From: a virus
Taxonomy: Duplodnaviria > Caudoviricetes
DNA length: 27,934 nt
Reading direction: 5' to 3' (one strand)
IMG/VR virus record: IMGVR_UViG_3300032308_002491
Location: 1-27,934 of that record
Shown: in pieces, positions 1 through 25,950 of the stretch
Layout: the number at the start of each line of letters is the position of its first letter
Position numbering within the stretch: position 1 is the first letter of the stretch
Translations under genes and position numbers: made by a program
Notes under the pieces: model-generated
Seen by the model: the letters and a program-made list of their open reading frames with translations, nothing else
Databases searched by the model: none
Told to the model about the DNA's origin: nothing

Positions 1-330
1 CGTGAAGAACGCAAACCATTACTTGCGGCACAAGATGTTGAATATTTAAAAGCATTAGAAGTTAATGGTGATACAACAGAAATCATCAAAGAAAAAAAGC
101 GTCTGCGTGATATTACAAAACTTGCAGATGATGCAACAACACTAGACGAATTAAAAGAATTGAAAGCAGAAAAACCAAAACCTCCTGAACCAATTATTCC
201 TGTAGATCCCGTTGTGCCTGATGAACCAGTTTTACCAACTGACCCAATCCTACCAACACCTCTGGATCCTGTTGCCCCGGAATCAAAAGTCAAAATACCG
301 TTAGGAAATTTAATTGTGAGGATTGACTAA
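1..330 (+). CDS. Phage tail-fibre assembly chaperone-like protein, 5'-truncated by the window, with Pro-rich C-terminal extension
   Basis: Not in the ORF track. Frame 1 is open from base 1 to TAA at 328-330 and reads REERKPLLAAQDVEYLKALEVNGDTTEIIKEKKRLRDITKLADDATTLDELK..., matching the R..R..LL...D.../LRDIT pattern of tail assembly chaperones. The stop overlaps the next start (TAATG). Confidence 0.65.
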   Translation, partial: REERKPLLAAQDVEYLKALEVNGDTTEIIKEKKRLRDITKLADDATTLDELKELKAEKPKPPEPIIPVDPVVPDEPVLPTDPILPTPLDPVAPESKVKIPLGNLIVRID

Positions 331-860: not shown

Positions 861-1180
861 TGGCAGCGGATGCGACAGAAAAAATACTAGAAAAATTAAT
901 TGATTCGATGCACGCAAAAATGGCGCAAGGTTTTGGCTCTAAAGCTGTAAAACCTGTTGCGGCAATCGAAGAAGCATTAGAAGATGCTAAAGAAGATAAA
1001 GAAGAAAATGAGATGGAAGAACCAAAAGTTCCATCAATTTTTGAAAAATGGTTGCAATCTGAAAACGAGAAAAAAGTTGCGCCAAAGAAAAATCAAATGA
1101 TTGTTTCAAAAACTCAAATCACTATGGCGCCAAAGAAAAAGTCTGACAATAAAACGCCATTTGTTGTAGGGAAAAAATGA
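860..1180 (+). CDS. Hypothetical protein (Lys/Glu-rich)
   Basis: 106-aa ORF overlapping both neighbours (TAATG, ATGA); GAGG upstream. Confidence 0.6.
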   Translation: MAADATEKILEKLIDSMHAKMAQGFGSKAVKPVAAIEEALEDAKEDKEENEMEEPKVPSIFEKWLQSENEKKVAPKKNQMIVSKTQITMAPKKKSDNKTPFVVGKK

Positions 1181-2130: not shown

Positions 2131-2139
2131 AGGTTGTAA

Positions 2140-5133: not shown

Positions 5134-5146
5134 AAAGGAGTGCCTC

Positions 5147-7126
5147 TTGGATAGAATTTACTACGCAAGTGACACGATCGAAAAAGCATCACAAAAAGTG
5201 ATGGAGATTGTTAGATTCCAACAGCAAAAAATGTTCTCGAGTGTGGGAATTGCGAATGTGTGGAATCGCAACTCGGAAGTTTATTACCGGAACAGTTTAA
5301 TTGATATTTTGAATTTCACAGGCGAGCAAGGCGAGCTCATTGGTATGAGTGTCCCACAAGCCCGATCTCTTGTGAGACAGATGATTTCTATCATCACGAA
5401 ACAAAAGTTGCAATTTGCAGCAAAAATGCGAAGTCGCGACTATAGCGCCTTTGGCAACGGACAGATTGCAGAGTCACTCGCAAATCAAATTGTGAAAGAC
5501 CAATCGCTCGATGAGAAAATCGACAGGCTCGCAGAGCTTACATATTTGCACGGGCAATGTTTTTGGCACGTGACTTGGGATTCCGAAGCTGGGCGACGGG
5601 TTGATACCGGCATGAGTGAGGCAATGCCTGATGGGATGCCCAGTGCGCCAGTGATGAGTGGTGATGTGAATATACAAGTCGCAAGTGCTAAATACGTTTA
5701 CTACGATTGGAACGAAGAAGATTGGAACAATTTACATTGCGTGACTGTTGCTAAACGCATGAACCGTTGGGATCTCATTGCGCAACATCCAGAGATGGAA
5801 GATGAGCTTAGAAAAATTCCGAATTTCAACCGAATTTTAAACGGGTTTACAACAACCATCGCATCGTTTGATGACACACTGACACGCACAGATGATTTGA
5901 TCCTTGTCTATTATTATTATCATAAACCAACCCCTGCGGTTCCCCAGGGTCGCATGATCATCATGTGCAGCGAGAAATGCGTATTATACGATGGCGCAAA
6001 CATTTATGAATGCTTGCCCGTGATTCCTTGCATGCCTGAAAAACTTGATGACTTTTTATTGGGCTATCCACAATTCTCAAACCTCGCACCGTTGCAGGAA
6101 ATGCTGGATATCAACTTTAGCACAATGGCAACGAATCAATCTGCATTTGGTGTGCAATCTGTTTTAAATCCTAGAGGCTCTAATATCGATATCACAGAAA
6201 TATATGGGATGCGTTGGATTGATTACACACCGCAGGGCAATGATGGCGGCGGTAAACCTGAACCCTTGCAACTCACGCGCTCTGCTCCTGAAATTATGGA
6301 CGGCATTAAAATTTATATTGATAACTTGGGCACACTTGCAAACATCAACAGTGCGCTGCGGGGCACACCGCCGCCTGGTGTGACAGCGGGAAATGCGATT
6401 GCAACGTTAACCGCAAATTCTATTGAATTTTTTAGTTCATTTTCAAAAGCCATCTTTGCAAGCATTGAGAATACAATTACGCTTGCGGTGAAATTCTATA
6501 AAATGCTAGGGGCAGAAGAACAACTTACGGTTATTTCTGACGGTAACATTTCTTATTTAAAAGAATTTAAGGCATCAGATTTGCGCGAATTTGAAAGAGT
6601 CTCGCTTGAAATCACAAACCCACTGATGGCAACAATTGCTGGCCGTCGCGACCAAGCAGAGATTTTGTTGAGCAAGGGATTAATTAAAGACATCGGCGAT
6701 TATTTCATGGTTCTTGAGGGTGAACCGCCTAAACGGTTATGGAATTCAGAACTCAATGAGTCGGCTTTAATTCAAAAAGAAAACGATGACCTCACCAAAG
6801 GCATTCAGTGTCCTGTGTTGTATACCGATAATCACGCATTACATATTGAGAAACATAAGGACATTTTGCGCAATCCGGAATTCCGCAGAAATGGGAATAT
6901 TCAAGAAATCTTAAACCACATGGAACAGCACGAGCAATTTATCAGTCAGCAACAGCAAGCGATGATGCCGCAGCAACCCATGCAACCGGGGCAACCGGGG
7001 CAACCGCCGCAGCAAAATGGAATGCCGCCGGTTGAGCAAGAGCCAACGCCGGAAGTTGCGGCGATTGAAGATAGACAGCAACAATCTAAACCGGCAACAC
7101 CTGCGGAACCTGAAATTAGCTTTTGA
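5147..7126 (+). CDS. Portal protein
   Basis: 659 aa, TTG start with AAAGGAG SD at about 5134-5140. Portal-like segments (GQCFWHVTWD; PVIP...LGYPQFSNLAPLQEMLD; ALRGTPPPGVTAGNAIATL; DNHALHIEKH) and a Gln/Pro-rich C-terminal tail. Confidence 0.8.
   Translation: MDRIYYASDTIEKASQKVMEIVRFQQQKMFSSVGIANVWNRNSEVYYRNSLIDILNFTGEQGELIGMSVPQARSLVRQMISIITKQKLQFAAKMRSRDYSAFGNGQIAESLANQIVKDQSLDEKIDRLAELTYLHGQCFWHVTWDSEAGRRVDTGMSEAMPDGMPSAPVMSGDVNIQVASAKYVYYDWNEEDWNNLHCVTVAKRMNRWDLIAQHPEMEDELRKIPNFNRILNGFTTTIASFDDTLTRTDDLILVYYYYHKPTPAVPQGRMIIMCSEKCVLYDGANIYECLPVIPCMPEKLDDFLLGYPQFSNLAPLQEMLDINFSTMATNQSAFGVQSVLNPRGSNIDITEIYGMRWIDYTPQGNDGGGKPEPLQLTRSAPEIMDGIKIYIDNLGTLANINSALRGTPPPGVTAGNAIATLTANSIEFFSSFSKAIFASIENTITLAVKFYKMLGAEEQLTVISDGNISYLKEFKASDLREFERVSLEITNPLMATIAGRRDQAEILLSKGLIKDIGDYFMVLEGEPPKRLWNSELNESALIQKENDDLTKGIQCPVLYTDNHALHIEKHKDILRNPEFRRNGNIQEILNHMEQHEQFISQQQQAMMPQQPMQPGQPGQPPQQNGMPPVEQEPTPEVAAIEDRQQQSKPATPAEPEISF
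6982..7006 (+). repeat. 9-bp tandem repeat (GCAACCGGG x2.8) encoding QPG repeats in the portal tail
   Basis: gcaaccggg gcaaccggg gcaaccg read directly. Confidence 0.8.
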
Positions 7127-7128
7127 CG

Positions 7129-7146
7129 TGATGTGACGTCACATCA
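7129..7146. promoter_or_regulatory. Perfect 18-bp palindrome TGATGTGACGTCACATCA (possible operator or hairpin)
   Basis: Lies in the 38-bp gap between the portal stop and the next gene. The palindrome is certain; its function is not. Confidence 0.5.
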
Positions 7147-7164
7147 ATTTAAAGGATTTTAAAC

Positions 7165-8379
7165 ATGCCGATAGTCTTTAGAAAAATTGATAATTTAGTC
7201 AGTAACCCAAAAAACGAAGCGGCACCCATAGGCGGCGGGTCGGGTGCTCAAAATAATCAAAACCCATACGTCTCAACGTTTCGCAACCCAAGCGATGTGT
7301 TGAGTGCAAACATCAACGAAAAGCAAGGCGACTTGGACACAGGGTTAAATCAGAACATCAAAGATGCACAGAGCAACTTAGACAAGTCAACGCAAACATA
7401 TACAGACAATTTAAAGAATATTGAAAACGAGAAAACCTACGCAGGCAAGGATGAGTTGAACAAAATAGATGATGGCCAATTCTCAAAATTGCAATCATTA
7501 TTGAGTCCGGAAGAGCGGCAAAAGCGCATGGACACAACCGCATCTTCAACAAAATATATCAATCCTGATACGAGCGCAGTCGCCGCAGCAAGTAGCGTGC
7601 AAGGTCTCTCAAACCAATTGCGGAATCAGTACAACACAACCGCTGGGGGTTCCAGGCTTGATGCGCTGTTGTATCGCAACAGTGGGCAAGCAGGACAAGC
7701 CTTAAATAAAAATTTAAGTGATATTAATAATTTTAATACAACCCGTGAAAATTATTTGAACAATGAAAATGCCGCGCTTGCAAATGCAAAATCAAACCTC
7801 GCCAACACTGCAAATACAGTGAGAAGTGATGTGCAAGGATTAAAACAACAACTCGGCACAACAGCACAACAGCAAGCAACGGATGCGCAAAATACGTTCA
7901 ACACATCCCGGCAGAATTTGTTGAATAACGAAATTCCCGAATTGCAAGCAAACACAATCCAAAATCTGCTTAAAGATGTGGCATTACAAAATAATTTGAC
8001 GCAATATTTGCCTGGACAAAATCAACGTTCCTTATTTCAATATGTTCCAAACATTGACCCATCTCTTTATGTGTCACCTGAAAGAACATTTGACCAATCT
8101 CAATTCTTAGATTCGAGATTTAATAAGCTAGCAGGCTTACTGGGAGAAGAACAAATCGCACCATCTGCAAGTCCTGCTGATACAAACGTTGCGTTTAATC
8201 GTGATGAGTATCTCAACAATTTGCAAGAAAGCGCGCGGCCTGACCTGTTGCGATTCTTACAATCGCGAGTCCCAGCACCGCCCCCAAGCTCAACAACAAC
8301 GCTAGGTTTATTACCAACACTAACGAACGCAGTTAGTAATTTCCCACTAGTGAGGGGAATTAGTAATGTATTTGGTTAA
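7165..8379 (+). CDS. Putative internal virion / DNA ejection protein
   Basis: 404 aa, Asn/Gln-rich and coiled-coil-like; AAGGA SD; first gene of an ejection-like cluster. Confidence 0.5.
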   Translation: MPIVFRKIDNLVSNPKNEAAPIGGGSGAQNNQNPYVSTFRNPSDVLSANINEKQGDLDTGLNQNIKDAQSNLDKSTQTYTDNLKNIENEKTYAGKDELNKIDDGQFSKLQSLLSPEERQKRMDTTASSTKYINPDTSAVAAASSVQGLSNQLRNQYNTTAGGSRLDALLYRNSGQAGQALNKNLSDINNFNTTRENYLNNENAALANAKSNLANTANTVRSDVQGLKQQLGTTAQQQATDAQNTFNTSRQNLLNNEIPELQANTIQNLLKDVALQNNLTQYLPGQNQRSLFQYVPNIDPSLYVSPERTFDQSQFLDSRFNKLAGLLGEEQIAPSASPADTNVAFNRDEYLNNLQESARPDLLRFLQSRVPAPPPSSTTTLGLLPTLTNAVSNFPLVRGISNVFG

Positions 8380-8400
8380 AGTCTATGAGGTATTATGTAA

Positions 8401-9447
8401 ATGGATCCGATTACTTTAAGTATACTCGGCGGTGCAACACTCGGCGGCGGATTGTTAAATTATTTCGGCGCCGAAAATGCACGGAAAGACGTCGCGTCAG
8501 AACGCGCACGGATTGCAGCACTCGCTGATGCAATACAAAGCCCTGAATTTGATATGAGCACGATCACACCCGAAGAGTTCAAACTTTTGGGTCAATACAA
8601 TCCCGAAATGTTGCCGCTCATTCAAGAAAAAGCACCCGAAATTGTACAACGTTCAATAGCGGGCGAGCAAGGCCAAGACGCGATGCTCAACTCGCTTCAG
8701 CGTTTGCGGAACCTGTCAAACACAGGTGCTGATGCACAGAGTCAAGCAATGGTTGAGCAAGCCATGCGCAATGCTGCAATCCAAAATCAAGGACAACAGG
8801 CTGGAATTTTAGATAATGCAAGCAGACGTGGTTTTGCGCCAGGTAGCGGTTTAGCGTTTGCACAAGCTCTTTCATCACAACAAAATGCGAATCAATCGGC
8901 ATCGCAAGCGGGCACACAAGCAGCACTCGCGGCATATCAAAACCGTTTGCAAGCATTAAAAGATTCTGCAAACCTTGGCGGTCAAATTGAAGCAAATGAT
9001 TTGAATTTGCAAGGTCGCAACGCGGATATTATCAATGCGTTTAATCAGAGAATGGCAGATAGTCGCCGCAACCAAGCAATGTTCAACACAACAAATTTAA
9101 ACGATGCCCAGAGGACAAACTTGGCAGCCCAACAATCTAACCAAGACCGCAACACTGCTTTAAGAAATCAAGCAAAATACGAACAACGCGATTTTAGAAA
9201 CCAAACAGCACAGCAACAATATCAAAACCAGTTGAATAAACTTGCTGCACAAACGGGCGCATCGCAGGGAAGCATCAACGATATCAGAGCAAACGCTCAA
9301 GACAGAGCAAATTTAATCAGCGGGGCTACAAATACCGCATTAGCGTTGGGCGGCTTGTACAAATCAAATCCGACACAACAACCAAGCCCAAAATATAACA
9401 ATATGTACTCCGGAGGCGGTTATGGCGACAGTGCGTTTACTGGGTGA
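8401..9447 (+). CDS. Putative DNA ejection (pilot) protein, P22 gp7-like composition
   Basis: Hydrophobic Gly-rich N-terminus (MDPITLSILGGATLGGGLLNYFGA), Gln/Ala/Asn-rich body and Gly/Ala-rich C-terminus. Confidence 0.6.
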   Translation: MDPITLSILGGATLGGGLLNYFGAENARKDVASERARIAALADAIQSPEFDMSTITPEEFKLLGQYNPEMLPLIQEKAPEIVQRSIAGEQGQDAMLNSLQRLRNLSNTGADAQSQAMVEQAMRNAAIQNQGQQAGILDNASRRGFAPGSGLAFAQALSSQQNANQSASQAGTQAALAAYQNRLQALKDSANLGGQIEANDLNLQGRNADIINAFNQRMADSRRNQAMFNTTNLNDAQRTNLAAQQSNQDRNTALRNQAKYEQRDFRNQTAQQQYQNQLNKLAAQTGASQGSINDIRANAQDRANLISGATNTALALGGLYKSNPTQQPSPKYNNMYSGGGYGDSAFTG

Positions 9448-10435
9448 AGACGCAAACCCTGATATTTATCAAACATTGCTGCAAAACTACAAAACAAAAG
9501 CGGCAGAGTTGCCACAAGTGTCTGATGCAGAAATCGAAAACGCTAAGCAGATGCAACAGTACGGGACACTTGCTAATGCTGTGTCAAAACTTGTTTCAAG
9601 CGCTGGTTCGTTTCAAGGCCAGCAAGCAAAGCCCATGGACTTTTCAGAGCTGGGAGAGTCCGGCATGCGTGACGTTGCATTAAAACGTCAACAGCAACAA
9701 GACAAACTCAATCTGTTGAATTCAGAGTATGGAAAAGATTTACAAGCTCAACAAGCCAAAGACGCAGCGATTGCGGGGAAAGCAGCAGCTCGCAGACAAG
9801 CAGAGATGGATCAATTCACGCGTATTAAACAAAACCAAGAATTAGAAAAAGGAAGCTACACAGAGGGGCAAAAGAAATTAGATGCAGACTATGCAAAAGA
9901 CTACAACGATTGGACAACAACTGGTCGCGCGCAGGCAGCTAAAAGTCTAGAAAAATTGAGAGAATCTTTAAATCTGTTGAAAAAAGAAGCATCCTCAAAC
10001 GTGCCAATGATTTCAGGACGGAATGTGGGAACTCTACCTGAATTCTTGAGACCTACACGCTCTCGCGTTGTGGAACAAAACGTCCAAGAGACAGCACAAG
10101 CAGGTTTAAAAGCTGTCTTGGGGACTGCATTTACAAAAGATGAAGGCGAGCGAATTTTAAAAACATCGTACGACAAAACTTTACCTGAAACTGAAAATAT
10201 TAAAAAAGTGGAAGCGATTATTAAAGAGTTGGAAGAGCGAATCGCAAACCAAGAATCAAAACGTGCAGCTTTTGAGAACGATGGAACATTAAGAAAATGG
10301 AAAGCCCCATTTTACTACCCTGAACCAAAACCCTCAATAAATACCCAAACATCACCTACGGCCGGGGGAGAAACTAAAGTCATAAACGGAAAAACATATA
10401 AGAAAGTACAAGGCGGCTGGGAGGTAGTGAATTAA
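9422..10435 (+). CDS. Putative DNA ejection protein
   Basis: 337 aa, helical and Gln/Lys/Ala-rich; ends in GETKVINGKTYKKVQGGW, a motif type common at the end of phage ejection proteins; stop overlaps the next start (TAATG). Confidence 0.55.
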   Translation: MATVRLLGEDANPDIYQTLLQNYKTKAAELPQVSDAEIENAKQMQQYGTLANAVSKLVSSAGSFQGQQAKPMDFSELGESGMRDVALKRQQQQDKLNLLNSEYGKDLQAQQAKDAAIAGKAAARRQAEMDQFTRIKQNQELEKGSYTEGQKKLDADYAKDYNDWTTTGRAQAAKSLEKLRESLNLLKKEASSNVPMISGRNVGTLPEFLRPTRSRVVEQNVQETAQAGLKAVLGTAFTKDEGERILKTSYDKTLPETENIKKVEAIIKELEERIANQESKRAAFENDGTLRKWKAPFYYPEPKPSINTQTSPTAGGETKVINGKTYKKVQGGWEVVN

Positions 10436-11943
10436 TGGCAAATTTTATTTCTGACGCAGAAATGGACAAGTTGTTGGCAAGCAACAACACAGCACAACCT
10501 GCTCAACCTAACAAATTTATTTCTGATGATGAAATGCAGAAATTGGAACAACAAACAGCACAACCCAAAAGTAACAATGATAGTTTTGCAAAAAAATTAG
10601 AAGCCGCTGGAATTGGTGCCGCGCGCGGTGCAACTTTTAATTTCTTAGATGAGATTGAGGGAGTTTTAGGCGGAGTTAATCGCGCAGGACAACAAGCTTT
10701 TGGCATGTTACCTAAACCCGAGGGTGAGGGTTTTGAGGGTGTTAAGAAAGCATTTCAAACGGGTTATAAAGTTGATCGGGATGCTTCACGTGCATATCAA
10801 AAGCAATTACAAGAATCCAACCCTGGGTCGTCAATGGTCGGCGAGATTGCATCCGGTTTACCCGCTATTGGCGCGAAAAGTTTGGTGACAATTCCCTCTA
10901 TGATTGCCCAAGGTGCACTATCAGGTCTTGGTGCTGCAGAAGGTGATGCAATCGCGCAAGCAAAAGGTGCTGCAACAGGCGGTGCAATTTCAGGAGCGTT
11001 TGGATTAGCAGGAAAAGGCATTGGTAAAATTGGAGAATCTCTTGATAAAATCAAAACTGACAACGCATTAAAAAGTGTTGGGTTTGATAAAGGATTACTC
11101 AATAAAATTTCAAAAAACATGCCGCTTGAAATGCGAGAAAAGCAAGAGAAAGACTTGGCAGAGTATATTTTAAAAAACAAATATGCAGATTTTTTTTCAA
11201 CAACACCTGGCCGTCAAAAAATGTTGGATGCTTCACGAAAAACGACAGGCCAACAAATTGGAGCGTTAAGAGAAAGCGTGACAGAACCATTTAGTGCTCC
11301 TGAAATTCTCGCTAACGTAAAAAAATCATTTAACCCAAACGAATTAAAAAACATTCCTGAAAATTCCGCGGTCACTCGTGCGCTTTCAGACTTAGAGAGT
11401 AATCTGCTTGGCAAATCTGATAAACTTAAAAATGTGAGTGGGTCGGATTTAGCACGTTCCATTTCATTCTTGAATTCGAACATTAAAAAAGCACGTGCGG
11501 GAATGGACGAAGTTGACGCAGCAGCTCTAGGGAAAATAAAGAAAACTTTAAACGAAATCTTAGAATCAAAAATTCAAGATCCAAACTACAAAGGGCTTGT
11601 CAAAGACTATGCAATGCAAAGTCAGGTTGGAAAAGCCTTGCAAAACCTGAACAACAAGAGCCTTAATTCCGCGATTGGATTAGGCGGTATAATAGGTGCG
11701 ACCGGCGCAGGCGCTTATTCAGCCAACCAGCAACAGGTAAGCCCAGGGGCATTTGCAGCAGCATCATTGCTAACACCATTGGGTAGGAGAAAGTTAGGAG
11801 AGGTTATTGCCAAAGGAATTAATACTGGTAATAATATAAGTAATAGAGTGCCAATGTCTGTGAAGCAATTTGCATCAAAAAGTGGCATAAATCCCGAAGT
11901 TCTATTGTACCTTGCCTCAAAACCAAGCATATCGCAAAATTGA
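10435..11943 (+). CDS. Putative large DNA ejection / internal virion protein
   Basis: 502 aa with GAARGATFNFLDEIEG motif, Gly/Ala-rich membrane-like segments and a duplicated N-terminal motif FISDxEMxKL. Confidence 0.6.
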   Translation: MANFISDAEMDKLLASNNTAQPAQPNKFISDDEMQKLEQQTAQPKSNNDSFAKKLEAAGIGAARGATFNFLDEIEGVLGGVNRAGQQAFGMLPKPEGEGFEGVKKAFQTGYKVDRDASRAYQKQLQESNPGSSMVGEIASGLPAIGAKSLVTIPSMIAQGALSGLGAAEGDAIAQAKGAATGGAISGAFGLAGKGIGKIGESLDKIKTDNALKSVGFDKGLLNKISKNMPLEMREKQEKDLAEYILKNKYADFFSTTPGRQKMLDASRKTTGQQIGALRESVTEPFSAPEILANVKKSFNPNELKNIPENSAVTRALSDLESNLLGKSDKLKNVSGSDLARSISFLNSNIKKARAGMDEVDAAALGKIKKTLNEILESKIQDPNYKGLVKDYAMQSQVGKALQNLNNKSLNSAIGLGGIIGATGAGAYSANQQQVSPGAFAAASLLTPLGRRKLGEVIAKGINTGNNISNRVPMSVKQFASKSGINPEVLLYLASKPSISQN

Positions 11944-11947
11944 CTAT

Positions 11948-12029
11948 TTTTAAGCTCATAGAGAAAAAAATATATCTGATCCTAACGATGATATCTATTT
12001 TAAAAAAAATATTTTCTATGAGCTTAAAA
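11948..12029. repeat. 15-bp perfect inverted repeat TTTTAAGCTCATAGA / TCTATGAGCTTAAAA with 52-bp spacer
   Basis: Arms at 11948-11962 and 12015-12029, directly after the last structural gene. Confidence 0.8.
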
Positions 12030-12474
12030 GCGTCGAAATTTTTTATTTTAAAACCTAATTCAAAATCAAAATTACCATTTCAAAATTTTAAGCTTCTTTT
12101 TAGAAATTTTTGTCGAAGTCTGTCAGCTTAAACCCGTTACAAAAATTTATAATAATAAAATTATTAAAATAAAAATTATTTATTATATTTATTTGTTTAA
12201 ATATAAAATTGAAACAAAGGAGCTTCTCCCGTGGAAACACAAAGTAAAAAAGCTGTGGTATAAAAAGGGGTGCCTATTTTTATTTTTTGCAACATGATTT
12301 TTATTTTTTTGCTTCTTTTTTGTGCATTTTTTTTGATTAAAAAGAATAAAAAATGATTAAAAATATATATATATAAAACTATAAGATACTGGAGCGAATT
12401 TTTACTTTTCAAATAACTATATGAAATTATTGATTTATTTTTCAGAAACCGGTTTTTTAAAAATGGTGCCAAAA

Positions 12475-12612
12475 GTGTATAGAAAAGTCGGTTCAGGGTG
12501 TATAGAAAAGTCGGTTCAGGGTGTATAGAAAAGTCGGTTCAGGGTGTATAGAAAAGTCGGTAGTGGGTGTATAGAAAAGTCGGTTCAGGGTGTATAGAAA
12601 AGTCGGTAGTGG
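12475..12612 (+). repeat. Iteron array: 6 x 23 bp, GTGTATAGAAAAGTCGGT(TCAGG/AGTGG)
   Basis: Units start at 12475, 12498, 12521, 12544, 12567 and 12590. The 18-bp core is invariant. Units 4 and 6 end in AGTGG, the others in TCAGG. Confidence 0.95.
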
Positions 12613-12621
12613 GTTTTTAAT

Positions 12622-12647
12622 ATGCAAAAAAATGATGCAAAAAAATG
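12622..12647 (+). repeat. Two tandem 13-mers ATGCAAAAAAATG (candidate DNA-unwinding element)
   Basis: 12622-12634 and 12635-12647 are identical and lie 9 bp after the last iteron. Confidence 0.65.
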
Positions 12648-12684
12648 ATTAAAAATTGTGCAGGAATTTTATGATAGAAAAAAT

Positions 12685-12713
12685 TTGGCAAAAAAAAAGC
12701 CTCTGTGTATATT
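12685..12713 (+). promoter_or_regulatory. Putative sigma70-type promoter of the rep gene
   Basis: TTGGCA (12685-12690), 17 bp spacer, TATATT (12708-12713); GGAGG SD at 12739-12743. Confidence 0.55.
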
Positions 12714-12750
12714 TAGTTTCTTAGACAAACATGAACACGGAGGTTAATTT

Positions 12751-13887
12751 ATGCTAATTACAAAAAGTAAAACAGTCAAGAGAATCGGAATTAAAAACGA
12801 AAATACTCAACAACATCCACATTTTAACGAAGCAATGGGTATTTGTGGGGCTTTGTTTTTTGACAGCTTTCAAGATTTTAAAGGCAATTTTAATTATTTT
12901 AGTTACAATGCCTTTAAACACGTCGTCAATCTTTGTCTTAATGAGTTCGGAATTTTAGGGTTTCGATTTTTAGAAGAAAAAATACGCACAACACATGAAA
13001 CAATTAGCGACTTGCAAACAAAACCTTACAGGCTCTATGAGTATTTAAACAGCAATACGGAAGAGTTTAAAGAATATCTCAATAAACATTTTGATAAAAT
13101 CAAAGAAAAAATTAATCTTCTTCCGACAAAAGAATTTATCCCTGTTACAGAACCTTTAAGTCGTGCAATTCCTAACGTTTTTTTACGTTCTGCCTTATTT
13201 GGAATTCAAAAAAAGGGGGTTCACCTCACTGTCAAAAATAAAGAGATACTGTCAATGTCACAGTATCAAGTTTTGTTTTCAGGAGAAGAATTAAACCAAA
13301 TGGATCTCATCGTTTGGGATGCATTGGTCTATTTATTTAAACAAAAGTCTAACGGAAGTAATCGTGTCCGCGTGACAATTTTTGAAGTGTGTAAATTTTT
13401 AGGTTATACAGATAGTACCGAAACCCGTGACCAAGTTAAAAATAGAATTTTTAAACTTGTTATCGCGGTTGTACAAGTCAAAGGCAAGCAACACGCAATG
13501 TATATGAGCCATCTTATTCAATCGTTTGCTATGATTGAAAATGAACTCAATGCTTATCATTTAGAATTTGATAATCATTTGCTTTGCGTGTTTAGAGATA
13601 CAGATGACTATACATTTATCAATCTAAATATTAGGAAGCACCTTGGCCAAAATCAATTGGCTTTATGGATTTTTCATTTTTTCGCTTCGCACAAAGAACC
13701 TATCCCTTTTTCGCTTGAATATTTACACGACTTATCAAGAAGCGGTTTAATGCAAAAAGAATTTAACAGGTCTTTACGTTTTGCTCTTGAATTGATTAAG
13801 AATGCTTACGAAAAAGAAAATAGCAAGTTTGAATACGCGATTAAAAATTCAAAATTGTTTGTTAGAAAAGATGGCGGATTAATTTAA
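12751..13887 (+). CDS. trfA: Plasmid replication initiator, TrfA family
   Basis: TrfA-family motifs RAIPNVFLRSALF, FSGEELNQMDLIVW and RKHLGQNQLALWIFHFFASHKEPIPFSLEYLHDLS; strong SD; adjacent iteron array. Confidence 0.88.
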   Translation: MLITKSKTVKRIGIKNENTQQHPHFNEAMGICGALFFDSFQDFKGNFNYFSYNAFKHVVNLCLNEFGILGFRFLEEKIRTTHETISDLQTKPYRLYEYLNSNTEEFKEYLNKHFDKIKEKINLLPTKEFIPVTEPLSRAIPNVFLRSALFGIQKKGVHLTVKNKEILSMSQYQVLFSGEELNQMDLIVWDALVYLFKQKSNGSNRVRVTIFEVCKFLGYTDSTETRDQVKNRIFKLVIAVVQVKGKQHAMYMSHLIQSFAMIENELNAYHLEFDNHLLCVFRDTDDYTFINLNIRKHLGQNQLALWIFHFFASHKEPIPFSLEYLHDLSRSGLMQKEFNRSLRFALELIKNAYEKENSKFEYAIKNSKLFVRKDGGLI

Positions 13888-14472
13888 ACTTCTGCACGTT
13901 TCCGTAGGCTTTAATTTCTGAATAAAGTCTAGCATCAATCCATATGAGTACAACACATCGTCTTGGGCACGATGTTTAGGGTTTGGTTGTTCGCTGTCAT
14001 CAGGATAAAGTGAAGTATAAATTGTGCGGAATGTAGTCATATCTAAAATTCGGTAGCTTAAACGTTTTGCAAAAGTTGGCATATGGTGTTTGATAAATGC
14101 CAAATCAAAATGCACAGAGTTACCCGCTAATTGTATACCCATCGAATGGTTACCGAATAAAAAATTAACACGTTTTATCAATTCTGTTTCAAGTTCTTTT
14201 AATTCCCATTTATCAATATTGGGATTGATAATATCGGCTATCAAACCATTTTGCTGGTGCATTTCAAACGCTTTTTGATTGCAATTGTGCTGCAACTTAT
14301 CAACGGGAAAATTCACGATTGCCGTAAACATTTTGTCTTGATAACAGGAAAATTTTTGCCCGTAAAATTGGGCAGGCAAAATTGAGAGTTCTAAAATGTG
14401 ATTCTGTGTTGGCTCAAGACCTGTAGTTTCTAAATCTAAAAACAAACAATTAATCAACGGAGTTGTCGTCAT
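13879..14472 (-). CDS. orn: Oligoribonuclease (DEDDh 3'-5' exonuclease, Orn family)
   Basis: FLDLETTGL, MHQQNGLI, LAGNSVHFDLAFI, LSYRILD and KHRAQDD match Orn motifs. ATG at 14472 is preferred over the upstream start at 14499. Confidence 0.85.
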   Translation of the reverse strand: MTTTPLINCLFLDLETTGLEPTQNHILELSILPAQFYGQKFSCYQDKMFTAIVNFPVDKLQHNCNQKAFEMHQQNGLIADIINPNIDKWELKELETELIKRVNFLFGNHSMGIQLAGNSVHFDLAFIKHHMPTFAKRLSYRILDMTTFRTIYTSLYPDDSEQPNPKHRAQDDVLYSYGLMLDFIQKLKPTETCRSLN

Positions 14473-14932
14473 CAATAAAGCCTTTCTCGAGATAAGCAAG
14501 TAACATTAAGATAGCATCAGCCTCATCATCAGAAACTTGGGGGTACGCTGGCCGGACACATTGCAGCGCTAAAAAACCTTTTGTTGATTTTCCGCCGCCG
14601 TATTTTCTAACAATTCTTTTCCAAACTGCGGGCGATACAAGGTTTAAGTCGCTTTGAATACACGGCAGAGAACAAAGAGCACCTACAGAATAACTCAATT
14701 TTGAATTTCTAAATCCACTTACATTTTCAACGACAAGATGATTAATAATTTCATTTTCGGGTAAGTAATGATTTAAAAACAATTCTAATTGTTGCCGCTG
14801 TTGTGTGATTCTTTGCGTCCAATTTCCATATCCCGTTAACAATGCAGACCGTAAAATTTCGTTGTAATACAATGCCACACCTGCTTTATTTGATGCGGGG
14901 TCAATCGCTAAAATAGTGGGAATTTTCTTCAA
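14450..14932 (-). CDS. RuvC-like Holliday junction resolvase
   Basis: ILAIDPASNKAGVA, LVVEN, PAVWK and SDDEADAILM supply the RuvC acidic residues. Confidence 0.8.
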   Translation of the reverse strand: MKKIPTILAIDPASNKAGVALYYNEILRSALLTGYGNWTQRITQQRQQLELFLNHYLPENEIINHLVVENVSGFRNSKLSYSVGALCSLPCIQSDLNLVSPAVWKRIVRKYGGGKSTKGFLALQCVRPAYPQVSDDEADAILMLLAYLEKGFIDDDNSVD

Positions 14933-15720
14933 ATTGTCTCCCCTAATTCAAATAAATAATTTGTTCCTAAAATGTGCTGTTTGTATTTATTAATCGCTTT
15001 ATAGAGTAATTGCAAACCCTCGTAGAGGGTATTTTGCGAGATATGATACATCTTCACATCATAGGGCGGCTCGGTTTCAAAGAATATAATTTTATACTCG
15101 TAATCTTCTAATTTTTTATTTTCATTTTTTGCTTTAAGCATACCATAAAGTGCAAGTTGCATATGATAATACTCATCAAATATGATGTGCTTTGCGATAT
15201 GTAATTTTGACGCGTTTTTATAAGTTGTTTTAAAATCAATTATGTATTTGTGATTTTCTGCATCGACTTTTCCTTTAAATGCCAAATCTTGAATTTTTGC
15301 AAAATATGGAGTCTCAAAATTTGTGACGTGATGCATGACGCCTTGAATTTCAGCATTCTGTAAATAATTTTGTTCAAGGTTAGTCAAAATAGGGAGAGAA
15401 TCGATAGGAATAATAAAGTTATCCGGCGGCAGAGTTTTTTTATAGTTTTCAATTATCTGTTTCCCCTCTGTGGTTGCGTGTGGGTTGCGTGCCGCGCGCC
15501 CGTCTTTTGTTTTTATCTGTGACAAGTCGGGCAGAAAACTCACGCGCTCTTTTTGGTTTTGTAGCCAACAATGAATCGCATTGCCCAAATTTGATGCAGC
15601 AGAACCCGCAAATGGTGTTTGCTGTTGCTGTAAAAATTTTCGGGGCGAATTTAAAATATGTTTGAGTTTTGAAAAGCTAAGCCGGTCAATTTGATAATAA
15701 TCAGAATCTGGCATGTTCAC
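14929..15720 (-). CDS. PD-(D/E)XK exonuclease, RecE/exonuclease VIII-like (DUF3799-type)
   Basis: YYQIDRLSFSKLK, LGNAIHCW, FKGKVD, IIDFKTT and YHMQLALY motifs. Confidence 0.85.
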   Translation of the reverse strand: MNMPDSDYYQIDRLSFSKLKHILNSPRKFLQQQQTPFAGSAASNLGNAIHCWLQNQKERVSFLPDLSQIKTKDGRAARNPHATTEGKQIIENYKKTLPPDNFIIPIDSLPILTNLEQNYLQNAEIQGVMHHVTNFETPYFAKIQDLAFKGKVDAENHKYIIDFKTTYKNASKLHIAKHIIFDEYYHMQLALYGMLKAKNENKKLEDYEYKIIFFETEPPYDVKMYHISQNTLYEGLQLLYKAINKYKQHILGTNYLFELGETI

Positions 15721-16070
15721 TCCACGAAAAAGTCGTGCATCGCTCTGTTTGATTTTGGGCTTGTTTTGGTGCCGAGATAATGAATTGTTATTGGGTCGCC
15801 TTTTTCTTTGCCGACTTTTTCAGTTTCGCCGTATTTGTATTTTTTGTAGTACATGAAAAACTTGAGTCCCATATACAACGGAACGCCAACATCGCCTTTA
15901 TCAGTTTTGATAAAAATAATTTTGCCGTCTTGATTTTCAAAAATGTTTGAAATTGTGCCTTTCACGCACTCGTTCACTTTAAACAATTCGCCATTGACTG
16001 TTTTATTAGTCAGCGAGGGCGCTTTTTTAAAAATGGTTTTGCTTTCGGTTTTGACAAATTCTGTTTGCAT
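15717..16070 (-). CDS. Hypothetical protein, possibly an OB-fold ssDNA-binding protein
   Basis: 117 aa, basic and beta-rich (GDPITIHYLGTK...HDFFVE), between the exonuclease and the polymerase; AGAGG SD. Function is inferred. Confidence 0.4.
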   Translation of the reverse strand: MQTEFVKTESKTIFKKAPSLTNKTVNGELFKVNECVKGTISNIFENQDGKIIFIKTDKGDVGVPLYMGLKFFMYYKKYKYGETEKVGKEKGDPITIHYLGTKTSPKSNRAMHDFFVE

Positions 16071-16082
16071 ACAGTGACCTCT

Positions 16083-18017
16083 TTATAAAAGATGCTGTGA
16101 AATTTTAAGCCAGTCTGCTTGTCCCTTTTTTTCAACCCATATTTCTGATTCCGTTATGATTTTATCATCAATTCTAATTTCAATACAGTTTTTACCCAAG
16201 ATTTTTTCAGTTGCTATCCGCATAACTTCTTTTAATTTTGGGATATCTTTTATTGGATCTGTTGAAATAATATAAATGGCATCATGAAGTGATGACACAA
16301 CGTTAAGTTGTGCTTGATACGCCTCAATAACTGCCTGACGCGTGATGCTCGCACTGTGTGCTTGCACAAGAAAGTTGCGGACACTTGTCATAATGGGGTT
16401 GTCAGGCCATAGTACCCAACCATCACTTGTAATCAGCGGCATCCGTTGCTTGTAGCGAGTGCTGACGTCATAAACCCAATGCCAATATTGCGCATAGACT
16501 GTTTTATGCGCAGTGATGAGTTTTAAGGTCTCTTCTTGAGTGACTTCTCGCTTGCAATCATAAGACAATTTGATGCGCAACTTTTCCGCACCCATTCCGT
16601 ATTGCAATCCTAATTTTGTTGACTTGAACAAGTCACGCTCGCGCTCGTGGGTTTTCTTTGTTGCATCCCACGGCACAGCGCCCGCTTGTTTTGCAAACTC
16701 TAGGTAAACGTCGCCTGAATTGTAGGCATTGATTAAGTTTGGGTCTTGAGAGAGCCAGGCAGCAACCGCGATTTCTTGTTGACTAAAGTCTGCGGCAACT
16801 ATGACAGTCCCAGGTTTTGGTTGAATAATGGCACGCAACCAGGAACTCATCGCTAATGGGTATGTTTTTGCTTTTGCGGCATTACGTCCCGTTTGAGTTC
16901 CGTAAATTCCATAAAAGGGTCTGACAACGTCATTTTTAAAATCATAGGCAGAAAAAAACCCATCAGAGTTCTTATCTTTAAACCATTTTAAAGATGATTC
17001 CGTTTTGTTGCATTTGTAAATCTCTTCAATAACTGGAATAGAGCGGTAATTTTCGATTGTTTCTTTATCTGTTTTATAAAAACCAGTTTCTGTTTTTGGC
17101 CACGACGGAATATTAAAACTTTCAATTAATTTTTGAATGGCTTTATTGTCTCTTTTTTCAGGTTTTCCTTTGATAATTTTAATGGCACCATTTTTAAAAT
17201 GTTTTTCTGTCGCAGGGGTTTCTTGCAAATAAATAGCAAACGGCGATAAACTGTTTACGGCATCGCGTGCGTCTTTAATAATTTCAGGAGTCTTTGCAAT
17301 AATTTTATCAAGTAATTGTTTGTTAATTGGTAATCCTGTTTGCTCACAGATTCCAATGCACGCAGAATACAACCCACGATTTAATATAGAATCATAAAAG
17401 TTTCTCAATCCCATCCTGTGATACTCTGCTTCTATTTTGTTGCGCACAGAATAAAGAAACGACACATCACTTAAGCAATAATTCATAATCTCGTGTTTAT
17501 GGTTTGTGATATTGTCTTTATCTCCTGAAATTATAATTTCTCGCATTGTGTTTTTTTGCGAAGAACTTAAAACGTGTTGCGTTGTCTTAAAGACTGCATT
17601 AATTAAGTTGGAGGGTACTTTGCTATGCTCAAAGAGTTCTTCGTGGTCTTCTTCGCTATTTATTTGATTTATCTGTTGACTAAACTTTGGGGGTTCTGAA
17701 AATTTTTTAAGCCCTGTGTGATCAATGTAAGAACCATACAAATAACGGTAATTTGAGTTTTGCAGCATTTTAAACTCGGCGTACAAATCAACCCACTCAA
17801 AATCAAGCGGGTTGCAAGCGAGCGCAAGTAAACAGCGAGACTCTGCAACGCCGTAATAGACGATTAGTTTTTTTATTTTTTGTAAATCATTTATCAATTC
17901 TTTTGTATCAGAGTTATCCAATAGCCAGTAGGTTTTATTTGCAAGAGCAGCACAGACTAAAGTCGGGTGTTCATTGTTAGCACCGAAGAATTCGAAGTCG
18001 AGGACTGCTTCATTCAT
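16083..18017 (-). CDS. Phage DNA polymerase, family A (3'-5' exonuclease plus polymerase, no 5'-3' exonuclease)
   Basis: ExoI LDFEF, ExoIII YCLSDV, TQTGR, motif A ADFSQQE, motif B RDLFKSTKLGLQYG and motif C LHDAI. Start at 18017 (preceded by GGGGA) or 18029. Confidence 0.93.
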   Translation of the reverse strand: MNEAVLDFEFFGANNEHPTLVCAALANKTYWLLDNSDTKELINDLQKIKKLIVYYGVAESRCLLALACNPLDFEWVDLYAEFKMLQNSNYRYLYGSYIDHTGLKKFSEPPKFSQQINQINSEEDHEELFEHSKVPSNLINAVFKTTQHVLSSSQKNTMREIIISGDKDNITNHKHEIMNYCLSDVSFLYSVRNKIEAEYHRMGLRNFYDSILNRGLYSACIGICEQTGLPINKQLLDKIIAKTPEIIKDARDAVNSLSPFAIYLQETPATEKHFKNGAIKIIKGKPEKRDNKAIQKLIESFNIPSWPKTETGFYKTDKETIENYRSIPVIEEIYKCNKTESSLKWFKDKNSDGFFSAYDFKNDVVRPFYGIYGTQTGRNAAKAKTYPLAMSSWLRAIIQPKPGTVIVAADFSQQEIAVAAWLSQDPNLINAYNSGDVYLEFAKQAGAVPWDATKKTHERERDLFKSTKLGLQYGMGAEKLRIKLSYDCKREVTQEETLKLITAHKTVYAQYWHWVYDVSTRYKQRMPLITSDGWVLWPDNPIMTSVRNFLVQAHSASITRQAVIEAYQAQLNVVSSLHDAIYIISTDPIKDIPKLKEVMRIATEKILGKNCIEIRIDDKIITESEIWVEKKGQADWLKISQHLL

Positions 18018-18579
18018 GCAATTCCCCATTAATTGATTTTATGATATCTTCAGCACCATATTTCGCATTGATATTCATTAAAATAGAAAGATTGCACGCA
18101 GCATGTGCTAAATGTGGTTGTTTACTTTCTAAATCAAAAAACTCACCAAGCCTGACTTTTTCAATGTGTCTCATCAGCGCATCGTAAATATCTCCTGCAT
18201 GTTTTGCTGTGATATTTCTATGAGAATCGAGACCATGCTTTGCGATACCTTGTCTAAAAATCATCGCCATATCATGCAACAAATGAGGACTTATTGCGCG
18301 GTAGTGTCCTTTTAAAATCAAGTCATCTTTTGTACTAATTCCATCAGAAAAATTTCTCTTAAACGGGCAGAGTTTAATTCCTGAAACACTGGTGAGATTT
18401 TCATTTGTTTCTAATTCGTGAATAGTGGAGCCGTATTTTTTTCTAAAGACGTAAGGGTAATGCCCTGGGCGTATTTGTTGCAATCTAAAAATATCATCAA
18501 TTAAAAATTCAGAATTTGTGGTTTCAATAATTTTAAATTTATCACCAACTCTATATAAATTGTCTGTCATAAAATTCAA
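18010..18579 (-). CDS. dATP/dGTP diphosphohydrolase-like domain protein (DUF5664-type) with N-terminal extension
   Basis: C-terminal half KDD...GIAKHG...YDALMRH...GEFFDLESKQPHLAHAACN matches this family. Confidence 0.75.
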   Translation of the reverse strand: MNFMTDNLYRVGDKFKIIETTNSEFLIDDIFRLQQIRPGHYPYVFRKKYGSTIHELETNENLTSVSGIKLCPFKRNFSDGISTKDDLILKGHYRAISPHLLHDMAMIFRQGIAKHGLDSHRNITAKHAGDIYDALMRHIEKVRLGEFFDLESKQPHLAHAACNLSILMNINAKYGAEDIIKSINGELHE

Positions 18580-19015
18580 ATCCTTTAAATTTTTGCGGGG
18601 CTAATGGTTCATTGGATGAGGGGATAAAAATGCGCTGTCCTGATTTTGGCGGTGTCACTTGTATATGAACCCACGTGGGCGTATACCTAAAGTCTTCAAA
18701 ATACACGCCATGAATTTCTGCTGCGATTAAATTTTCTAAAATTGCATGCATTAATAAAAAGGGTTTCATATCGAGTAAATCCACAGCTTCACATGTGATG
18801 TGTTTACTTTTAACTGCTGCGTTTTTGATGCTATCATTCAATTGTTGGGGTCTCCAGCCACTTGTCACTTGCACATCGTTTATGTGAATTTCCTTTAAAA
18901 AATTATTAATTTTTTCAAGTGTGGTCATCATTGTTTTTTCAAGTTTTTTATTCCAATCTTCATAATATATAATATCTCTTCGTTTTAAATAATCGTCCGG
19001 TGTAATTAATGGCAT
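18551..19015 (-). CDS. Peptidase M15 family zinc peptidase, putative endolysin
   Basis: VTSGWRP...N, SKHITCEAVD (SxHxxxxAxD) and WVHIQ zinc ligands. Confidence 0.85.
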   Translation of the reverse strand: MPLITPDDYLKRRDIIYYEDWNKKLEKTMMTTLEKINNFLKEIHINDVQVTSGWRPQQLNDSIKNAAVKSKHITCEAVDLLDMKPFLLMHAILENLIAAEIHGVYFEDFRYTPTWVHIQVTPPKSGQRIFIPSSNEPLAPQKFKGFEFYDRQFI

Positions 19016-19024
19016 ACTTAACCT

Positions 19025-20545
19025 TTAATTTGTCTGAAAAGGGTCATAATAGACTCCTTTTTTATCCAACGCTTTTAAACCATAAATGCGGCCATGTTCG
19101 GCTTTGATGCTGTGTTCATTTTTTAAATATTTTAAGAAATTAGACAGGCCATAATTCTTTTTAAATTCTTTTAAGTTTGTCATGCTTTGCAATGATTTAT
19201 AAAACAAAGACTCATCAATTTCTGAATTTGGGTCTAGAACAAAATCACCCGAGCGGATAATTTTTGCCCATAATTCTTGATTCATGACAAGCTGTGCTTT
19301 GTCTTGTAAACTTTTAAATTGCGCTTGCTGGTTGGGGCTTGGTAACACTGTCCAATTTTGCCCGATTTTTTCATAACAGATTCGGCAATAATTGATAAAG
19401 TCGTTAAAATTTTGCCCTAAGTAATTCTCATACATTTCTTTTGAATAAAATTCTGTTGCTTTCAACGGCTCAAATTTAAATAAACGGAGTCTGCGCAATT
19501 CGTATGAGTCGCCGTCAATTTCAGGCAGCACGTTTGAATCGATCATCAACAAACCGGACAATGTGCCTGTAAATCTATCTTTCCCTTTTTGTTCAATGCT
19601 GACAATACTATCTCCCGTCAATTGTTTGACTTCTGCTTTTTGCAAAACTCGTGGGTTGTTATTTTCAGAAAGAACAATGAGGGCTTTATTGAACATGCCA
19701 AAATTTGAAAATTGATTTGAGCTATCAAAGCTCGCGACAACATCTTTTCCAATTTTTCGCCGCAACATTCCCGTAAATGAAGATTTCCCCTCGCCGCCCT
19801 CGCCGTATAAATAAATAACATACGGCGATTTATGGCCATTAAAACAAATCCAAAGTAACGCGCACAATCTATCACTATCTGTCACGCGTCCAAGTAATTC
19901 TTTTAAATGTGGATTAAGTTGTGGGTGTTCAATGTAGTCATACTGTAATTTATGCGCAGAAAATTCTCGGCTGGTCGAGAGTGTGAGCGGTTTGATTTCA
20001 TAATCAATTATCATTGGAGTTTTTGTATACAGTGAGTTGATAATTGAGTTGACTAAAAGTTTGATGCAACTTTCAATTGTCACATGATGCCGTTTCTTTT
20101 TTTCCGTCCGCTGTTGAATTTCTTTATGCAACAGCGCCATATCTTCGGGATAAAGATTGGCAAGCAACCGCACAAGCTCATCAGTCCCTGGGAGCGATGA
20201 GGCAATAAGTTTTGCTCGAGTGCCATCAATTAAATAAATCAGTTTTTGTTCCGGATTATTTTTATTGAGAACAATTTGGAATTTATCAATGACATAACTA
20301 AACGAGTGAATAACTTGATCCATCTCATCAAAACATTGATCGACAAAGTTTTGACGGTCGCGGCATTTCTCTTTTAAGACTTCGATAATTTTTTCAACTT
20401 CATGAATCTCTGCGCCGAGGTCAAGGATTTCTTGAATAAGTTTTCTTTTCTCCACGGGTTGATTCGCATAACGTCCTGCGTGGTGATAAAAGGTCTCGCC
20501 ATTCACTCGGTACTTTTTCAGCAAAGTTGATAATTCCACTTTCAA
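19025..20545 (-). CDS. SF3 (D5/P4-like) helicase ATPase
   Basis: Walker A GEGGEGKSS, Walker B LIVLSE, KQLTGD...IEQKG, motif C IDSN and RRLR arginine finger; TTG start with AAGGA SD. Confidence 0.85.
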   Translation of the reverse strand: MKVELSTLLKKYRVNGETFYHHAGRYANQPVEKRKLIQEILDLGAEIHEVEKIIEVLKEKCRDRQNFVDQCFDEMDQVIHSFSYVIDKFQIVLNKNNPEQKLIYLIDGTRAKLIASSLPGTDELVRLLANLYPEDMALLHKEIQQRTEKKKRHHVTIESCIKLLVNSIINSLYTKTPMIIDYEIKPLTLSTSREFSAHKLQYDYIEHPQLNPHLKELLGRVTDSDRLCALLWICFNGHKSPYVIYLYGEGGEGKSSFTGMLRRKIGKDVVASFDSSNQFSNFGMFNKALIVLSENNNPRVLQKAEVKQLTGDSIVSIEQKGKDRFTGTLSGLLMIDSNVLPEIDGDSYELRRLRLFKFEPLKATEFYSKEMYENYLGQNFNDFINYCRICYEKIGQNWTVLPSPNQQAQFKSLQDKAQLVMNQELWAKIIRSGDFVLDPNSEIDESLFYKSLQSMTNLKEFKKNYGLSNFLKYLKNEHSIKAEHGRIYGLKALDKKGVYYDPFQTN

Positions 20546-21038
20546 TATCCTTTTTTGCTTTTTTATGTGCTATGTGTGCTTCTTTTTCTGTTGCAAAATA
20601 GCCGAGACAAATTGCTCTACTTTTATAGTAAATTCGAGCATTCCAAGGTTTTGTTTTTTTCTCTTTGCGAAAACTTGCGCCAACCAAATACTGTGACGAT
20701 TTTCTATGGGCTTGCAATTCATATTTATTGCAGTGAACGAGATTTAAAAAGCGCAAATCGTTTGGGTCTTTGTTGCGAAAACTGATAAATTGGTGCGGCC
20801 ATAATTTTGTCATATAAAACCATGCAAGACGATGAGCTGCATAATCTTTTTTACCAATTCGCACAAAAGAATAACCGCGAGACGGCGCAAAAAAAACCGC
20901 GTTGCTGCCTTTTCTAATTTTGTGTTTATTTATTTTCCAGGTAAAAATTCCGGTTTTGGGATCATAGTGTATTTGTCGAGTCAAATCATAATAACTTAAC
21001 ACACGTCGCCCTCTTATTGATTTATTTTGTAACGTCAT
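20421..21038 (-). CDS. HNH-AP2 domain protein with degenerate HNH active site
   Basis: YDPKTGIFTW, GY..V.I....Y.AHRLAWFY, and AP2-like WNARI...LGYFATEKEA. The usual IDHIN..DNR is replaced by ISFRN..DLR. Confidence 0.8.
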   Translation of the reverse strand: MTLQNKSIRGRRVLSYYDLTRQIHYDPKTGIFTWKINKHKIRKGSNAVFFAPSRGYSFVRIGKKDYAAHRLAWFYMTKLWPHQFISFRNKDPNDLRFLNLVHCNKYELQAHRKSSQYLVGASFRKEKKTKPWNARIYYKSRAICLGYFATEKEAHIAHKKAKKDIESGIINFAEKVPSEWRDLLSPRRTLCESTRGEKKTYSRNP

Positions 21039-21521: not shown

Positions 21522-21919
21522 AGATTTTAGAAACGCCTTGTATTGCCATTAATAATTTACACATCAAAACTCGACTTGTGAATTTGTCGTTTGAAATTTT
21601 TACTAATTCTTTTCATGAAAAAGACAGTGACGACCAATTTAAATACTCCAACTGTTTTTTTCGCTACCATGGTGTCAATGGTTATTCCATTAAATTTATG
21701 GTGTGGGTTATTGGTGATAGAACAATATTAAAAAATTTTATTCTTGAAAAATCAGTTGAAACTCAAAAAAAGAAATGGTTTCAATTTTGGAAAAAAAACA
21801 CAATTGAATCTACAATAGAAAATTTATTAATTTCAGATAAAGACGCTACACAAATTGTTTTAGATTCTTTTACAGAGGATGTGGTTAAAAATTTATTAAA
21901 CTTTTGTGAAAAGGCTTGA
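21500..21919 (+). CDS. Hypothetical protein
   Basis: 139-aa ORF with KKKWFQFWKK amphipathic motif; overlaps the upstream gene and the terminase 3' end. Confidence 0.6.
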   Translation: MDTTSLIKILETPCIAINNLHIKTRLVNLSFEIFTNSFHEKDSDDQFKYSNCFFRYHGVNGYSIKFMVWVIGDRTILKNFILEKSVETQKKKWFQFWKKNTIESTIENLLISDKDATQIVLDSFTEDVVKNLLNFCEKA

Positions 21920-25820: not shown

Positions 25821-25950
25821 AGCCGAATTATTAAAAGGTAGGCGTGATGGCGTGATTTAATACAACGTTTTTTTATGGTGGGTTCGGCTATCTAGCATTA
25901 AATTTAGTCGAAAATTTTATAAGAATCAACTTTTTTAAGGACTTGGATTG

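Follow-up and report, generated by a model that had tools for sequence, protein, structure and literature searches.

The window, that is, the whole stretch of DNA analysed here, comprised 27,934 bases. It corresponded to an entire virus record and represents most of a freshwater phage genome of ~38-40 kb. About 10 kb of this genome lies outside the window, and in run X1 the right-hand contig extended about 9.4 kb beyond the window end. The virion arm occupied the plus strand (330..11943), where the portal and tail fibre genes were identified by PHROG matches and the other genes were labelled from protein features and gene order. It contained a tail fibre-like gene (phrog_18673), an adaptor-like gene (1177-2130, named from gene order), a 997-aa nozzle-like protein with crAss muzzle-like features (2140-5133, 0.91), the portal (5147-7126; phrog_156, E 7.5e-9), and four probable ejection or internal proteins, also named from gene order (7165-11943). 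The lytic replication arm, defined by profile searches of the window ORFs, lay on the minus strand (13879..21038) and encoded a DEDD exonuclease, a RuvC-like resolvase, a RecE-like exonuclease, a family A DNA polymerase, a dNTP diphosphohydrolase, an M15 endolysin, an SF3 primase-helicase, and an HNH protein. Further to the right were the terminase large subunit gene (21885..23282, minus strand; PF03237, E 4.7e-9; phrog_2, E 5.6e-23) and an N6 DNA methyltransferase-like gene (25948..26577, plus strand; PF02384, E 2.8e-5).

Genes for the virion, packaging, and lysis were thus represented by the portal, terminase, and endolysin in the window and by the holin and capsid in its sister genome G004. 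Gene order and weak matches suggest that the phage likely has a short tail of the podovirus type, and neither a tape measure nor a sheath protein was matched over the cut-off among the ORFs scanned in the window and sister records. The capsid matched NF033394 weakly (24 bits against a cut-off of 80), and PDB sequence searches gave no match. The most variable virion gene among relatives (9422-10435, 65-81%) contained a replacement of ~550 bases in runs X1 and X5 (window 9861-10403). A gene of 147 aa that diverges from the replication operon (21078-21521) showed a weak HTH-like match and is kept in the integrating relatives described below (35-37%), making it a candidate regulator. A variable restriction-modification-like island was seen at 4692-7380 of the related record L008 and at 25948-26577 of the window; G004 and G005 carry a methylase and an Eco57I-like gene there, oriented opposite to the methylase of the window.

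Between the last virion gene, which ends at 11943, and the stop of the converging exonuclease gene at 13879 lies rep (12751..13887, plus strand), an intact ORF of 378 aa that PF07042, its fold, and its plasmid matches assign to the TrfA family of replication initiators. The original prediction had proposed an intact TrfA-motif gene at exactly this junction, and both the position and the family held. In a profile search of 12751-13887, residues 124-328 of Rep aligned with positions 34-240 of the 282 in PF07042 (44 bits, cut-off 22, E 1.9e-11). There was no NCBIfam match, no match among 50,697 annotated phages, and nothing under E 0.4 among the sequences of solved structures. The structure model (pLDDT 74) showed two winged-helix domains, with RctB (E 8e-8), RepE, and pi as best matches, and Rep as modelled is a double winged-helix replication initiator. 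By tblastn, Rep matched 426 PLSDB plasmid records; among the matches listed, 29 of 30 were annotated as trfA, and annotated TrfA proteins were 23-34% identical to Rep. The label 'replication helicase' offered by phrog_775 was rejected, since the fold and plasmid matches indicate an initiator. Three pairs of rep sequences gave dN/dS ratios of 0.16, 0.11, and 0.17, indicating purifying selection on the gene.

The surroundings of Rep relatives were those of plasmids. An array of 22-23-bp repeats adjoined rep in all 15 genome loci examined (of 21 fetched), and none of these 15 loci matched the virion genes of this phage. ParA or MobA was encoded beside Rep relatives at 9/10 loci (45 picked neighbours). 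Judged from these sequences, the relatives of Rep are plasmid initiators. The Rep cluster itself has 34 members, many on contigs of 33-40 kb. Two of the 426-440 PLSDB records were checked as possible phage-plasmid precedents, namely Arsenophonus NZ_CP123537 (whole) and Piscirickettsia NZ_CP013669 (first 50 of 57 kb), and both were rejected, carrying conjugation genes and none of the listed virion genes. A scan of IMG/VR for the iteron pattern returned 20 loci: three known relatives, 16 single matches, and L050, which was set aside as an unrelated hairpin-end element. In L050 (1237-5030), two inverted copies of a gene that we take to be protelomerase-like enclose a perfect palindrome, and a linear phage-plasmid probably has its hairpin end here.

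Upstream of rep are six 23-bp iterons (12475..12612, plus strand), each beginning with GTGTATA and arranged head-to-tail from 12475, 12498, 12521, 12544, 12567, and 12590. The six direct repeats first noticed here were confirmed: TRF gave period 23, 5.8 copies, and a score of 245 (the other 21 rows reached at most 56), and the longest exact periodic run extended over 64 nt, whereas 300 shuffles of 11901-12800 gave runs of 13 nt at most. The AT-rich tract noticed at the same time does exist, with 98% A+T at 12141..12200, but it is private to this genome, being absent from 3/3 related origins aligned. The conserved block is instead 12305..12474, on the left side of the iterons, with about 75-85% A+T and kept in 4/4 aligned origins; it is the likely unwinding element. 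The G+C content was 26% in the origin and 32% in rep, against 43% and 37% in the two arms.

The resemblance of this origin to RK2 oriV was upheld in part. Iterons of 22-23 bp beside an AT-rich region were found as expected, but the other elements of RK2 oriV, described in the available text of PMC4081077 as four conserved 13-mers and DnaA boxes, were unsupported. Two tandem 13-mers are present at 12622..12649 (plus strand, 2.2 copies by TRF); they are real sequence but unsupported as a feature, as they are not tandem in 2/2 relatives covering the spot and the RK2 13-mer consensus (from the same part of PMC4081077) was not enriched (40 matches, 58.8 expected). They are probably incidental. A DnaA-box consensus pattern was likewise not enriched in the scan (91 matches, 117 expected) and formed no cluster at the origin. 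RK2-like 13-mers and DnaA boxes were therefore rejected as origin parts, being neither enriched nor conserved.

Variation among 21 Rep sequences peaked at residues 220-229 (entropy 9.04), a peak reached by 0/5000 permutations, although this result overstates the significance because the Rep sequences are related. In the Rep model these residues form a turn and the start of helix 223-238, and they are predicted to be the hypervariable start of the WH1 recognition helix; by position, helix 223-238 corresponds to the helix that contacts DNA in Rep proteins, as described in the accessible part of PMC8034659. The core of the iteron also differs among the relatives read (L001, L003, L045, and runs X2, X3, and X5). 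The window and L001 share the same helix allele and the same iteron core, L045 differs from them in both, and runs X2, X3, and X5 have in common yet another core and yet another helix allele, which in X5 lie on the same contig. These four linked cases and three allele pairs, from few and related sequences and with the iteron allele of L043 left unpaired, are suggestive of co-variation between the iteron core and the predicted Rep helix. A sigma-70 promoter of rep is predicted at 12685..12713 (plus strand, 10/12 match) and is kept in 3/3 loci covering the spot, while the promoter scan as a whole was not above chance (5 sites, 9.8 expected). GTGTATA occurs seven times in the window, six times in the iterons and a seventh time at 12705 over the predicted -10 box of this promoter, suggesting that the seventh copy is likely a site of Rep autorepression.

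Alignment to two related records, L005 and L042, delimited the replicon as an exchangeable cassette of origin and initiator gene (11975..13876). Both records showed full identity to the window as far as position 11974 and onwards from position 13877, with unrelated DNA between. The main flanks of the cassette were 90-96% identical to the complete sister G004. The slot was filled in all nine distinct related records in which it could be read, five with the TrfA type and four with a second type, which we denoted as type B. The TrfA type was found with rep in L001, L002, and L045 and as the origin only in L003 and L043, which are probably one phage; type B was found in L004 (=L044), L005, L041, and L042. 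Two cassettes are thus interchangeable at this slot, the replicon of the window being one of them. An 18-nt inverted repeat (94%; 11948-11965 and 12012-12029) straddles the left cassette border and may be a terminator or a recombination site.

Cassette B is unrelated to the TrfA cassette and combines an origin-like stretch, in which 11-bp repeats occur, with a gene of 201-212 aa; in L005 it spans 7940-9192. Genes of this family (L005:8566-9192; L071:5974-6627; L072:5980-6615) encode unannotated proteins of ~200 aa with 11-bp repeats upstream. The type-B protein had 33 close clusters (42 at 50% identity), and no informative Pfam family was found in 31 members. Its structure model (pLDDT 54) was too poor to search, and the Atlas matches were all under 0.9. 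Upstream repeats of 11-12 bp exceeded shuffles in 9/10 strong and 2/9 weak type-B homologues (19 loci), and some homologues lie on large contigs. In one assembly, contig G134:C111 (L087, L095, and L099) carries three type-B homologues within 8 kb, one of them broken by stops.

In PLSDB, type B matched two circular Pigmentibacter ruber plasmids only, pGTC16762-1 (AP029160) and pGTC16762-2 (AP029161), whose homologues are 33% and 28% identical. Neither plasmid has a typed replicon, and Rep3, TrfA, and RPA were not found on either. On the 68-kb pGTC16762-2 the order is an HTH gene, 11-bp repeats, the type-B homologue, parA, parB, and terminase, with baseplate genes elsewhere. The position of a type-B homologue before parA-parB on a circular Pigmentibacter phage-plasmid points to a likely undescribed family of plasmid replication initiators in Silvanigrellales. 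AP029161.1 (L072, L083, and L084), which encodes terminase, baseplate J, RecT, ParAB, and HigB, is itself an apparently unreported phage-plasmid, likely of the myovirus type; the word 'phage' does not occur in the accessible part of the announcement of the Pigmentibacter plasmids (PMC11385108).

The gene content of the lineage was examined in five records (G001-G005), comprising one complete circle (G004) and four fragments. Sister G004 has 40,322 bases, direct terminal repeats, and a rating of complete, and also carries capsid, holin, and methylase genes. It answers the call of the original prediction for a check of circularity, in that its terminal repeats indicate circularity or terminal redundancy; they say nothing on the state of the genome in the cell. 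The predicted lack of an integrase was confirmed: there was no match among the 34 window ORFs scanned, and neither the tyrosine integrase PF00589 (controls positive 14/14) nor the large serine recombinase domain PF07508 (controls positive 2/14) was found in any of the five records, G004 included. Of the partition or toxin-antitoxin genes that the original prediction had also listed for checking, toxin-antitoxin genes are present in G003, G004, and G005, but ParA (PF13614 profile, controls positive 14/14) is absent from 5/5. G004 carries a BrnT-type toxin-antitoxin pair, and G003 a RelE/ParE-like toxin with an HTH antitoxin. All five records carry a resolvase-type gene; that of G004 is a small serine recombinase with PF00239 and a C-terminal HTH, whose best NCBIfam match is the Mpi family at 175.7 bits, below the cut-off of 272. 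No repressor was recognised among the ORFs scanned, portal and terminase searches of PLSDB returned no member of the lineage, and none was found inside a host genome.

The closest annotated phage was Proteobacteria phage MWH-Nonnen-W8red 1 (CP017838) of Silvanigrella aquatica, with a portal identity of 56%. When 131 Oligoflexia genomes were searched with the portal profile, five matched, one of them strongly (G136); its prophage lies inside a 271-kb contig with an integrase at its end and flanking genes without a match to the phage set. CP017838 and the G136 prophage resemble the lineage in portal (56%), capsid (59%), helicase (44%), terminase (40%), and family A polymerase, sharing with it the polymerase and helicase of the replication arm. 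In contrast to the lineage, both carry a tyrosine integrase gene, and the G136 prophage sits in the chromosome. CP017838 (integrase E 8.7e-16) has no cassette at the corresponding junction, in a record with 3,152 N, and TrfA was not found in CP017838 or the G136 prophage in a search that had no positive control there and was positive elsewhere. The lineage has the replicon cassette, resolvase, and toxin-antitoxin genes instead.

In a tree of 24 rows, the phage Reps grouped (99/100) with two proteins from a single Silvanigrellaceae assembly and one other protein. Based on these relatives and the Rep tree, the hosts are likely Silvanigrellaceae. More distant relatives of the virion module were seen in the viral contig L049 and the Oligoflexia assembly L082 (portal 27-37%). 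The record of the Silvanigrella phage, L040, encodes an Acb2/Tad1-type anti-defence domain (40354-40815, E 6e-16) and contains a duplicated block of ~4 kb and runs of N.

A plasmid-type origin with its initiator in the slot, and sisters with another cassette in the same place, suggest that the lineage is likely a plasmid rather than integrated. We consider it probable that the 1.9-kb cassette maintains a circular plasmid prophage, with the recombinase resolving dimers, toxin-antitoxin genes replacing partition, and the phage polymerase serving lytic growth. In this model, Rep monomers would contact the six iterons with the recognition helices of both winged-helix domains and open the neighbouring AT-rich block, and Rep bound at the seventh GTGTATA would repress the rep promoter. 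Host enzymes would copy the circle during lysogeny, and the phage polymerase and helicase would take over in lytic growth. Dimer resolution would fall to the small serine recombinase, with toxin-antitoxin pairs taking the place of a partition system. A swap of the cassette, or a joint change of helix and iteron core, would create new incompatibility types, and we propose that a phage could thereby settle in a cell already holding a sibling. Against this plasmid-prophage reading we counted the lack of ParA in 5/5 records, of a recognised repressor, and of a cultured carrier; the sole closed genome, which carries cassette B and not TrfA; the absence of lineage members from PLSDB and host genomes; the lack of enrichment of DnaA boxes or RK2 13-mers; the recombinase match to Mpi below the cut-off; and a co-variation drawn from few, related sequences.

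Several of these points would also fit a lytic phage, or one in a loose carrier state, that uses the Rep/iteron cassette as a starting origin for lytic replication before its own polymerase takes over. The lineage shows neither ParA nor a recognised repressor, its slot is always filled, as for an essential origin, and it has never been seen in a cultured host. We regard this as unlikely, however, given that the integrase-bearing relatives share the polymerase-helicase module without TrfA or a cassette at the junction, that resolvase and toxin-antitoxin genes accompany the cassette, and that relatives of either cassette type occur on bona fide plasmids.

A dual life, in which integration is the work of the small Mpi-like serine recombinase and the replicon supports no more than a transient episomal state, appears very improbable. 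Mpi is the best NCBIfam family of the recombinase, and elements with both states are described in the part of PMC7969092 consulted. However, the protein has only PF00239 and a C-terminal HTH, without PF07508; no host genes lie near it among the listed ORFs of the five IMG/VR records; and the sole close portal match in the Oligoflexia genomes belongs to the tyrosine-integrase clade.

An origin of the cassette by chimeric assembly, or as a dead plasmid piece between two converging operons, is hardly credible: its lower G+C and the frequent breaking of assemblies inside the iterons would fit, but the purifying selection on rep and the 34-member Rep cluster speak against it, and a chimera, the artefact the original prediction had warned of, is excluded by the independent contigs L001 (IMG/VR) and L045 (metagenome), each of which spans the last virion gene, the origin and rep (these 90-91% identical), and the exonuclease and thus both borders of the replicon. 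In run X1, possibly the source sample, read depth was 160 to the left and 165 to the right of the iterons. A 39,707-base contig of run X7 begins at the iterons, as would a circle broken there. The cassette is no assembly chimera.

The plasmid-prophage reading can be set beside known systems. The cassette resembles TrfA-oriV of RK2/IncP-1 and other plasmid replicons with PF07042 initiators in its PF07042 protein, double winged-helix fold, and iterons with a period of roughly two helical turns, next to an AT-rich block. It differs from RK2 in that the iterons lie directly upstream of rep, there are no par or conjugation genes, the replicon sits in a phage, Rep has the limited identity to annotated TrfA given above, and neither 13-mers nor DnaA boxes are enriched. 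In P1-like subgroup 1, according to the portion of PMC7969092 available, two alternative replicases occupy the same genome position and belong to different incompatibility types. P1, however, is a myovirus, larger and equipped with partition genes and Cre, whereas the genomes here are about 40 kb, without Par, and carry a TrfA-type or unannotated initiator. Podovirus-type phage-plasmids are known but few, and include the F116 community; no replicase is recognisable in F116, and its Klebsiella members type as IncFIB (PMC7969092, same portion). The F116 community was not returned by the portal search of annotated phages, kinship being compared by portal alone. The Pigmentibacter plasmids share homologues of cassette B behind 11-bp repeats and, for pGTC16762-2, also parAB, terminase, and baseplate genes, but show no similarity to the virion genes of the window in the stretches compared.

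The claim of a new phage-plasmid type therefore needs narrowing. The group is new, but neither its lifestyle nor its replicase swap is new in kind, since podoviral phage-plasmids and the replicase swap of P1 were already published, as the consulted part of PMC7969092 shows. Our literature search, which did not cover subscription journals, found no description of this phage group and no phage-plasmid for Bdellovibrionota; Silvanigrella is not mentioned in the main text of PMC7969092 as far as available, and PMC7386786 makes no mention of phage or plasmid. The lineage is a well-supported candidate phage-plasmid group. A wider proposition may equally prove right or wrong: that a short-tailed phage lineage of Bdellovibrionota persists as a plasmid without a partition system, in contrast to its integrating relatives, and that its plug-in origin slot alternates between a TrfA cassette, whose helix and iterons co-diversify into incompatibility types, and an undescribed initiator of ~200 aa with 11-bp iterons that also replicates untyped Silvanigrellaceae plasmids.

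The lineage likely adds a podoviral phage-plasmid group to a phylum for which our literature search found none, and offers a natural comparison of integrating and plasmid-type members within one phage group. With helix and iteron alleles that come in pairs, the specificity code of a TrfA-type protein becomes directly testable. The likely new initiator family would account for plasmids of Silvanigrellaceae that have stayed untyped, and vectors for these bacteria could be built from it. Of all these findings, the exchangeable slot and the cassette-B family most deserve to be pursued.
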